Origin: a virus
DNA length: 27,435 bases
Reading direction: 5' to 3' (one strand)
UHGV virus genome: UHGV-0266262
Shown here: piece by piece, positions 18,212-18,945 of the stretch
How positions within the stretch are numbered: position 1 is the first letter of the stretch
How the letters are laid out: the number at the start of each line of letters is the position of its first letter
Program-made: the position numbers and the translations under genes
The notes under the pieces: generated by a model
Told to the model about the DNA's origin: nothing
What the model saw: the letters and a program-made list of their open reading frames with translations, nothing else
Databases searched by the model: none

Positions 18212-18235
18212 GACAAAGTCTCAATTGGATTGAAA

Positions 18236-18508
18236 ATGAGTGATTTATTACTAATTAAAAACTGGTTAATTGACCATCATGCACTATCGATTTTCTTTGG
18301 GTTTTTATCGGCTGGGTTATGGATCAAATCAGCAACAGCCAAAGTCAAAACAGGTAGAAGCACCGTTGTAGCAATTACATTTGATGATCCCAAAAAAAAT
18401 GTAGATCTTCACGAATTTTTCTTAACTGCGCGGTTACAGTCTAAATATAACTCATATGCAGCTTTCGCTGCTGCTGCAACTGTGATTTTGCAAATGGCTG
18501 GCTATTAG
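18236..18508 (+). CDS. Small AT-rich membrane protein (accessory gene)
   Basis: About 90 aa from ATG 18236; one hydrophobic helix (ALSIFFGFLSAGLWI); weak RBS; opposite strand to the late operon; low GC. Confidence 0.4.
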   Translation: MSDLLLIKNWLIDHHALSIFFGFLSAGLWIKSATAKVKTGRSTVVAITFDDPKKNVDLHEFFLTARLQSKYNSYAAFAAAATVILQMAGY

Positions 18509-18596
18509 AAAACCTTAACCAAGATATTATTTACCTTTATCAATATCAGTTAACGGCTCAAAGTGTAATGGTTCCACATTCTCCTAATGGAGTTAT

Positions 18597-18722
18597 TTAC
18601 TCGCCCGTCTCGGTAGCCAGCTGCATAAAGCCATTAACCAGCTCAGGCTGACGTCGTGACGTCTTGCCCGTAAAGGTTTCGCCTGTTTGGGTGGTTAACG
18701 TGATTTGGTAGATGTCGGACAT
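18597..18722 (-). CDS. Small hydrophilic hypothetical protein (41 aa)
   Basis: ATG 18722 preceded by AAAGAGG; MSDIYQITLTTQTGETFTGKTSRRQPELVNGFMQLATETGE. Confidence 0.4.
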   Translation of the reverse strand: MSDIYQITLTTQTGETFTGKTSRRQPELVNGFMQLATETGE

Positions 18723-18945
18723 TGAGAGCCTCTTTATCCGCTTGTGGGGATATCCATTATCAAAGCCACTCTGTAAGGAATGGCTTTTGTGATGGCAATA
18801 AAAAAACATCCGTAGGAGGTTAGATTAAGTCTTCACCTTTTTCATATTCTTCGATGTGATGTCACGAACGGTGCAATAGTGATCCACACCCAACGCCTGA
18901 AATCAGATCCAGGGGGTAATCTGCTCTCCTGATTCAGGAGAGCTT

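Follow-up and report, generated by a model that had tools for sequence, protein, structure and literature searches.

What kind of genes are carried between terS and the neighbouring insertion sequence (IS) in the virus genome UHGV-0266262, and is one of them switched on and off? The 27,435 nucleotides analysed, called here the window, form a prophage of P22-like or lambdoid type, and the minus strand encodes its late operon. An earlier note, made from the letters alone, had described beside terS two small accessory open reading frames (ORFs) in a position typical of morons: one of about 90 amino acids (aa) on the plus strand, taken for a single-pass membrane protein with an A8 tract that could allow slipped-strand switching, and a hydrophilic one of 41 aa on the minus strand. 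Both ORFs were found where they had been described, between terS (18211) and an IS21-family element (18860), with the lysis genes beyond the IS. As prophage accessory loci go, this one is ordinary, and it is no switch controlled by slippage. It consists of a 90-aa gene, almost certainly real, within what is very probably a slot for cargo, and of a 41-codon ORF that is in all probability what remains of a late-operon gene. Its parts are the following.

17684 to 18211, minus strand: terS (Terminase_2, Pfam E-value 9e-40), back-to-back with the 90-aa ORF.
18212 to 18598, no strand: very probable exchangeable cargo slot, 387 bp, 35.4% GC, from the terS start codon to codon 41 of the phrog_6581 gene.
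18236 to 18508, plus strand: gene of the 90-aa protein with two hydrophobic helices, phrog_14357 (ORF and PHROG match).
18392 to 18399, plus strand: A8 homopolymer, codons P52-K53-K54-N55 of the 90-aa ORF, read from the sequence.
18509 to 18596, no strand: AT-rich spacer of 88 bp within the slot, between two convergent stop codons.
18597 to 18722, minus strand: probable 41-codon N-terminal remnant plus stop of an approximately 72-aa late-operon gene, phrog_6581 (coding from 18722 to 18600, stop at 18597-18599).

The 90-aa ORF is already deposited in RefSeq as "hypothetical protein" (WP_042343393.1 and WP_089567038.1). The profile searches proposed in the earlier note, which had recognized neither product, placed both ORFs in PHROG families: the 90-aa ORF matched phrog_14357 over its whole length (E-value 5.3e-62, residues 1-90 against profile positions 1-90 of 90) and the 41-aa ORF matched a second family, phrog_6581, in part. 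Neither family has an assigned function in PHROGs v4. The nearest diverged homologue, P0002, is 70% identical in amino acids and lies in a different setting, between baseplate genes and a DUF2441 gene (locus L007). When the DNA of the two ORFs was compared, 53 differences fell in third codon positions versus 11 in second positions, and the ratio of nonsynonymous to synonymous substitution rates (dN/dS) was about 0.08, with a dS that is saturated. The exact window protein was present on 191 contigs of a 15-billion-protein collection and further intact 90-aa alleles on 672, 250, 64 and smaller numbers of contigs, which brings the intact alleles to more than 1200 contigs from Escherichia coli, E. 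marmotae, Salmonella and Klebsiella aerogenes, the frame being kept across several genera. Judging from these comparisons, the 90-aa ORF is almost certainly a real gene under strong purifying selection.

The search with a HMMER profile against 1.84 billion cluster representatives retrieved 29 proteins at E <= 1e-3, 27 of them small (48-129 aa). A word-indexed search with a wider profile added 37 similar proteins from Enterobacteria, Pseudomonas, Methylovirgula and metagenomes, none with a Pfam domain or an informative name. By its alignment, the 90-aa protein is a member of a family as yet unnamed, whose proteins are 80-100 aa long and have two hydrophobic helices. The conserved motifs of the family are interfacial. 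The alignment contains one conserved block at the end of helix 1, G-x-(L/I)SA-x-LW-x-x-SA-x-x-KV, and another at the start of helix 2, T-x-x-LQ(S/A)K(W/Y)N-x-x-AA...Q; Q68, A75 and A76 are invariant and W29, K70, N72 and Q86 nearly so. Hydropathy located the hydrophobic helices of the window protein at about residues 16-30 and 73-90, in place of the single membrane pass proposed before. The long C-terminal helix ends in 18 hydrophobic, Ala-rich residues. Throughout the family both hydrophobic helices recur, and between them runs a basic loop, about 25-40 residues long in the 90-aa protein, with around 6 K/R and a mean net charge of +1.5 across the family, the termini being neutral. The AlphaFold2 (AF2) model calculated from a 27-sequence alignment was a two-helix hairpin with a predicted local distance difference test (pLDDT) score of 87.4 and a predicted template modelling (pTM) score of 0.69; its helices span residues 2-14, 16-34 and 58-89, and residues 35-57 form a loop. 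This model superseded a poor run on 3 sequences (pLDDT 54). Considering the model together with the positive-inside rule, the protein is probably a helical hairpin of the inner membrane, with the loop predicted to face the cytoplasm.

No known family resembled it. Pfam, NCBIfam and PADLOC searches with the 90-aa protein and 27 family members returned noise only, namely Cas_Csa4 (E-value 0.003-0.011), SLATT_4 (0.007, one member) and KwaA (0.02, one member). The models YebO/gp15, Imm_superinfect, SieB, Phage_holin_* and Hok_Gef matched none of the 27 members at E <= 0.1, and these exclusion, holin and toxin families did not match the window protein at E <= 1 either. No defence model of PADLOC-DB 2.0 matched the 90-aa or the 41-aa ORF. 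A sequence profile search of the PDB gave nothing meaningful, and Foldseek found no match at E < 1 for the confident AF2 model in the PDB or BFVD. Among 50,697 deposited phage genomes there was no match by tblastn with the 90-aa protein or by blastn with a distant allele. No mention of the family's motif strings and RefSeq accessions was found in the literature.

A moron has been defined as extra DNA of deviant composition with its own promoter and its own terminator, which the repressed prophage expresses (Juhala et al. 2000, summarised in PMC3594210). The composition of the slot is deviant, with 35.4% GC versus 47.9% in the whole window and 46.4% in terS, and at third codon positions the GC fraction was 0.30 in the 90-aa ORF versus 0.47 in terS. 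The low-GC patch of the earlier note is therefore real for 18212-18598 but leaves out the 41-aa ORF, with 52% GC. The slot is also extra DNA. In the prophages of EC931 and AST215 (L004 and L006), whose terS/terL are 95% identical to those of the window, homology was lost at 18211/18212 and regained at 18598/18599, unrelated sequence standing in between. The ORFs that occupy the slot in other prophages are unrelated to the 90-aa ORF, run on the same strand as it and start 21-28 bp from terS; the alternative cargo included proteins of 174 aa (phrog_5483), 171 aa (phrog_5663, with a weak DUF2441 match) and, in S1, 72 aa. In the window, the slot has a single gene, which is antisense to the late operon. 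The cassette itself, 389 bp long, was found in 11 of 5426 complete E. coli genomes, in all cases at 99-100% identity, and the 88-bp spacer at 18509-18596 is common only to copies of this same cassette.

The flanks of the slot are conserved in a particular way. The left one corresponds to the first ~90 nt of terS (18122-18211, minus strand), with ~95% nucleotide identity that includes the synonymous sites, and terS genes sharing this 5' block otherwise differ by 25-30% (L045, L047 and L048). The right one comprises the leader of the phrog_6581 gene and its codons 1-41. From these alignments we infer that the two flanks are homologous recombination sites at which cargo is swapped. The conservation of the terS 5' end may alternatively reflect a signal that overlaps the coding sequence, such as the promoter serving the divergent cargo gene. 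Taking all this together, the locus is very probably a cargo or moron-type slot, and the moron position claimed by the earlier note applies to the 90-aa gene, which is AT-rich, antisense and restricted in distribution, and not to the 41-aa ORF. It would also be a clean example of cargo exchange in P22-like/lambdoid prophages between two conserved flanks, with a neighbouring gene truncated collaterally.

This neighbour is annotated in RefSeq as the hypothetical protein WP_263767175.1. The 41-aa ORF matches phrog_6581 with an E-value of 5e-20 at profile positions 1-41 of 66 only. The 232 detectable members of this family are typically 72 aa long and share a C-terminal block, WLYFAPxDVKRVxFTP, followed by an acidic tail. 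The window ORF halts right after ...ATETGE, without the C-terminal third and its block; the DNA past its stop is not homologous to intact phrog_6581 genes, and the megablast homology to Enterobacter phages ends at 18599. Given that a third of the protein is missing, including its most conserved part, we treated the ORF as a pseudogene fragment. By comparison with the family it is in all probability a gene remnant, the truncated first 41 codons of a late-operon gene of ~72 aa, instead of the independent hydrophilic accessory protein that had been proposed. The truncation junction is identical in HZ13 and in K. aerogenes, so the truncation belongs to this cassette type. With its good Shine-Dalgarno sequence (AAGAGG) retained, the fragment may be translated even now, and its survival would be due to its use as a recombination flank.

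The gene to which this fragment belonged was found intact in Enterobacter phage CobraSix (72 aa) and in L048. It has been inactivated independently in most of the E. coli prophage copies examined (L001, L004, L005 and L006). In EC931 the codon of W42 is a stop, with the frame intact downstream; the S1 copy is frameshifted and also interrupted by stops at codons 17 and 38; the AST215 copy stops at codon 15 and is annotated as a pseudogene; and IGC_RcoliRes_1.1 has a further deletion of 4 codons (12 bp). This pattern of sequence damage suggests that E. coli lysogens can do without the phrog_6581 gene or that it is selected against in them.

The relatives of the 90-aa gene were located in several settings. 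The IMG/VR loci L043 and L045-L048, whose family members share 51-58% identity with the window protein, also have the membrane gene back-to-back with a terS of the same type, and L048 has in addition an intact phrog_6581 homologue of 60 aa that is convergent with the membrane gene. In the IMG/VR phage L047, the membrane ORF has as its immediate right-hand neighbour a 153-aa ORF (5642-6103) in which two hydrophobic helices are predicted. From these comparisons, the association of the membrane gene with terS is old; the gene also moves. K. aerogenes prophages contain a block equal to window positions 17973-18753, made up of an 80-codon terS fragment, the membrane ORF and the 41-aa stump; a distance of 1.5-3 kb separates this block from the real terS of these prophages. 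Of 5426 complete E. coli genomes, 289 have a paralogue of 89 aa, WP_000429347.1. In strain JJ1886 (ST131; locus L050, 5020-5353; NC_022648.1) it occupies the end of a prophage, flanked by ssrA on one side and the RnlAB toxin-antitoxin pair on the other, and upstream of it there is a relic of ~62 nt of the terS 5' end, with no terS nearby and with unrelated downstream flanks. The local alignment score of this relic was 43, versus 14.7 +/- 2.2 in shuffled sequences, none of 2000 being as good. A candidate terS relic upstream in L007 was marginal (48 of 2000 shuffles as good) and was not relied on. Two other members are in the early regions of Pseudomonas prophages, on the opposite strand, and two are near Mrr-type nucleases in mobile regions. 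Across ten family contexts no partner gene was conserved. Downstream of the Pseudomonas members, and on their strand, comes an ORF of 241 aa from phrog_13652, a family of unknown function (L016, 6375-7100; L017, 450-1175), with which they could form a two-gene unit.

A key aspect is how the 90-aa gene would be expressed. Its start codon and that of terS are separated by 24 bp, so any promoter of the 90-aa ORF must lie within the terS coding sequence. The sole sigma-70 consensus match of the upstream region was ATGACA-16-GAAAAT (18210-18237), whose predicted transcription start falls past the ATG; other -35/-10 pairings inside the terS 5' end, judged by eye, were all rejected as too weak. The scans around the JJ1886 paralogue gave nothing convincing as promoter or terminator. 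The Shine-Dalgarno sequence is weak (GGA, 8-10 nt upstream), and GGA or AAGGA is conserved at the same position in the homologues. The ~60-nt terS 5' relic that travels with the gene is the best hint of where the promoter is located. The RNA fold of the spacer at 18509-18596 was no better than that of shuffled sequences (z -0.41).

Considering that the gene is antisense to the late operon and that numerous prophages have it at places used for cargo, its expression most likely comes from the repressed prophage and is shut off in lytic growth. The course of events that we propose is as follows. The 387-bp AT-rich cassette fills what is very probably a cargo slot delimited by recombination between terS and the phrog_6581 gene, and the gain of this type of cassette very probably cut phrog_6581 at codon 41, leaving the 41-aa stump. 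The 90-aa protein would then be made in the lysogen, from the repressed prophage, and would act at the inner membrane to the benefit of the lysogen; after induction, the convergent late transcription, which reads the whole antisense strand of the gene towards terS, would silence it. We give somewhat better than an even chance to this account as a whole, namely a cargo gene with a stump beside it, no phase switch and a lysogen-side action at the membrane, any specific exclusion function being left out of the estimate.

This arrangement recalls phage lambda, where bor, the gene of a small protein of the envelope, stands between the lysis and the packaging genes and is read in the direction opposed to late transcription; the prophage expresses it, which makes it a lysogenic conversion gene. 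The likeness would lie in the position and in the opposed direction of transcription. Lambda Bor is a lipoprotein with a serum-resistance phenotype; the 90-aa protein, in contrast, has no lipobox and has two hydrophobic helices, and no sequence relationship was detected between them (no Pfam match). Small inner-membrane moron proteins that exclude phages have been described as well: HK97 gp15 (YebO family), P22 SieA and T4 Imm (PMC3594210). By analogy, the 90-aa protein would share with them its small size, its inner-membrane location, its coding on add-on DNA in a late or structural operon with a composition unlike that of the flanks, and a benefit for the lysogen. HK97 gp15, however, has its own promoter and terminator, none of which was found at the window locus, and the Pfam models for these three proteins match no member of the 90-aa family. 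These precedents and the paralogues beside defence genes favour an exclusion or anti-phage role. The most likely single function would thus be, tentatively and by analogy, superinfection exclusion or another anti-phage role at the membrane, although we regard it as on the doubtful side. A broader proposal, rather improbable in our estimate, is that the LSAxLW...LQSK(W/Y)NxxAA hairpins are a new and widespread class of prophage inner-membrane exclusion or defence proteins, with their ancestral home beside terS and an expression signal in the first ~60-90 nt of that gene. Such a signal would explain the near-invariant synonymous sites of the terS 5' end and also the relic travelling with the gene to sites like the ssrA-proximal prophage end of JJ1886. 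If the 90-aa protein does act for the lysogen at the membrane, a small unannotated membrane-protein family, which has no Pfam or NCBIfam model, would join the cargo with which prophages protect lysogens, the window-type allele being present in ~0.2% of complete E. coli genomes and the paralogue in ~5%, including the ST131 strain JJ1886. In any case, the residual interest of the locus lies in an unnamed, well-conserved membrane family and in its travel with a piece of the terS 5' end.

Several points weigh against the lysogen-side reading. The function is deduced from position, strand and neighbouring genes, and the Pfam, NCBIfam, PADLOC, PDB sequence and Foldseek searches gave no likeness to a known exclusion, holin, toxin or defence family. 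The promoter scan yielded no more matches than chance (2 found, 2.3 expected) and no sigma-70 promoter ahead of the ATG, and the consensus scan found no terminator-like site between 18509 and 18600; two of the classical features of a moron are therefore not in evidence. One family member is located between trpA and trpB in Methylovirgula, a non-phage context. And the long-standing linkage with terS, seen at 51-58% identity, could mean a role in the cycle of the phage itself.

This last possibility, a gene that works in lytic growth and not in lysogenic conversion (near terS it might couple lysis, packaging or the processing of late transcripts), was weighed together with the other explanations. 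The retention of the back-to-back arrangement in distant homologues, the terS relics kept by relocated copies and the unusual nucleotide conservation of the first ~90 nt of terS all agree with it. Nevertheless, close prophages with the same terS hold unrelated cargo or other ORFs in the slot, the cassette is in so few genomes (11/5426) and on the strand opposite to all the late genes, the paralogues exist in contexts without terS, and the 50,697 deposited phage genomes gave no tblastn match; we consider a lytic-cycle role quite unlikely. Somewhat less unlikely, though still improbable, is that the protein is a membrane-damaging effector (holin-like, abortive-infection or type-I-toxin-like) which kills or arrests the cell conditionally and is otherwise held down by antisense late/terS transcription or by a weak promoter. 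It has the size class and the two-helix architecture of class II holins, which have two transmembrane (TM) segments, and of the SLATT-type 2TM effectors; its helix faces are rich in Ala and small residues, with conserved polar S25, S32 and Q86 in or near the hydrophobic helices; the gene is fully overlapped by the antisense late transcript; and paralogues adjoin RnlAB and Mrr-type nucleases. The SLATT_4 (NF033632) and KwaA matches speak for it at first sight, but each was obtained with 1 of 27 members, at noise level (the former far below the cut-off), and none with the window protein. No holin, Hok or SLATT model was matched, no sensor or nucleotide-synthase gene accompanies the 90-aa gene as in SLATT systems, no partner is conserved across contexts, and the lysis cassette, on the opposite strand, already has its own holin. 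What probability these explanations, together with the two that follow, leave over goes to some other lysogenic-conversion role of the 90-aa protein.

The two remaining explanations concern the nature of the ORFs. Chance ORFs in AT-rich junk DNA would fit with the lack of a detected promoter or terminator, with the weak Shine-Dalgarno sequence of the 90-aa ORF and with the loss of the conserved C-terminal third in the 41-aa ORF. For the 90-aa ORF this is contradicted by the dN/dS of 0.08, the frame kept across genera, the family-wide motif and the confident fold; for the 41-aa ORF it is essentially accepted, except that the ORF is a gene remnant instead of a chance one. That both are non-functional chance ORFs is accordingly very improbable. 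Even less probable is a phase-variable accessory membrane protein, switched on and off by slipped-strand mispairing at the A8 tract. The tract does lie inside the membrane ORF, at 18392-18399 and not at 18394-18401 as the earlier note had it, and frameshifted variants of both signs exist in public data: an A7 form (P0004), whose product of 55 aa ends in ...DDPKKM*, on 3 contigs versus more than 1200 contigs with intact alleles, and a single A9 locus in IMG/VR, with a 69-aa product. However, the comparison of tract length across isolates that the note had suggested revealed an almost invariant tract. All 11 complete E. coli genomes carrying the cassette have A8, and the 16 IMG/VR copies were A8 in ten cases, the in-frame C4A7 (PQKN allele) in five and A9 in one, so that 15 of 16 loci are in frame and no frequent frame-switching polymorphism was found. 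The tract is also absent or broken in the homologues (GAAGAA, PEEN, in K. aerogenes/P0001; EKDN in P0002) and the distant members are devoid of it. Since there are neither frequent on and off lengths nor a maintained tract, the A8 does not look like a contingency locus; we infer that it is an ordinary mutational weak spot, and the rare A7 and A9 forms fit the ordinary mutation expected of any 8-mer homopolymer, or sequencing error. For annotation purposes, the A8 tract should not be called a phase-variation site and the 41-aa ORF should be entered as a pseudogene fragment.

The rest of the region was also analysed. On the minus strand the order is holin, lysozyme, Rz/Rz1, an 82-aa ORF split by the IS, the region of the 41-aa and 90-aa ORFs, terS, terL and the portal gene, with these additional features.

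22426 to 22211, minus strand: holin, late-operon lysis gene, beyond the IS.
22211 to 21714, minus strand: lysozyme, late-operon lysis gene.
21729 to 21280, minus strand: Rz/Rz1, late-operon lysis genes.
18860 to 20813, plus strand: IS21-family insertion sequence, 1954 bp, with a 6-bp target duplication, ATGTGA.
18820 to 18859, minus strand: 3' end (last 13 codons plus stop) of the 82-aa ORF, phrog_35226, whose remaining part runs from 21028 to 20820.
18723 to 18819, no strand: late-operon leader or intergenic region with a stem-loop and a degenerate hairpin, homologous to L005.
17687 to 16272, minus strand: terL, followed by the portal gene.

The IS21-family element has an IstA matching NF033546 (E-value 2e-95) and an IstB in two pieces, and the copies of the ATGTGA duplication flank it at 18854-18859 and 20814-20819. 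An in-frame stop after codon 95 divides istB (19965-20747) into ORFs of 95 and 147 aa, so this copy of the IS may be unable to transpose on its own. When the IS and one copy of the 6-bp duplication were deleted, the 82-aa ORF was restored, with a C-terminus reading ...HIEEYEKGEDLI, as confirmed against L005. The restored ORF is a member of phrog_35226, a family of unknown function, and aligns from end to end with WP_053903633.1 of E. coli S1 (L005) at 89% identity. Because it is rebuilt by removing the IS, positions 18820-18859, which the earlier note had included at the right edge of its accessory locus, belong to a third gene. The 82-aa ORF is AT-rich and appears to be a separate cargo gene in the orientation of the late operon, followed by a terminator-like hairpin.

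The Rfam scan of 17600-21400 at E <= 1 gave no match. In the leader of the 41-aa remnant, a stable although imperfect stem-loop was predicted at 18754-18795 (dG -19.4 kcal/mol, z -2.64), the outer stem of which is common to L005, L007, L014 and L015. Next to it, at about 18800-18824 on the minus strand, there is a degenerate terminator-like hairpin with a run of T7 that folds at only -2.8 kcal/mol, and its counterpart in L007, L014 and L015 is a strong GC-rich terminator. The structures at 18754-18824 may act as an internal terminator or processing site of the late operon.

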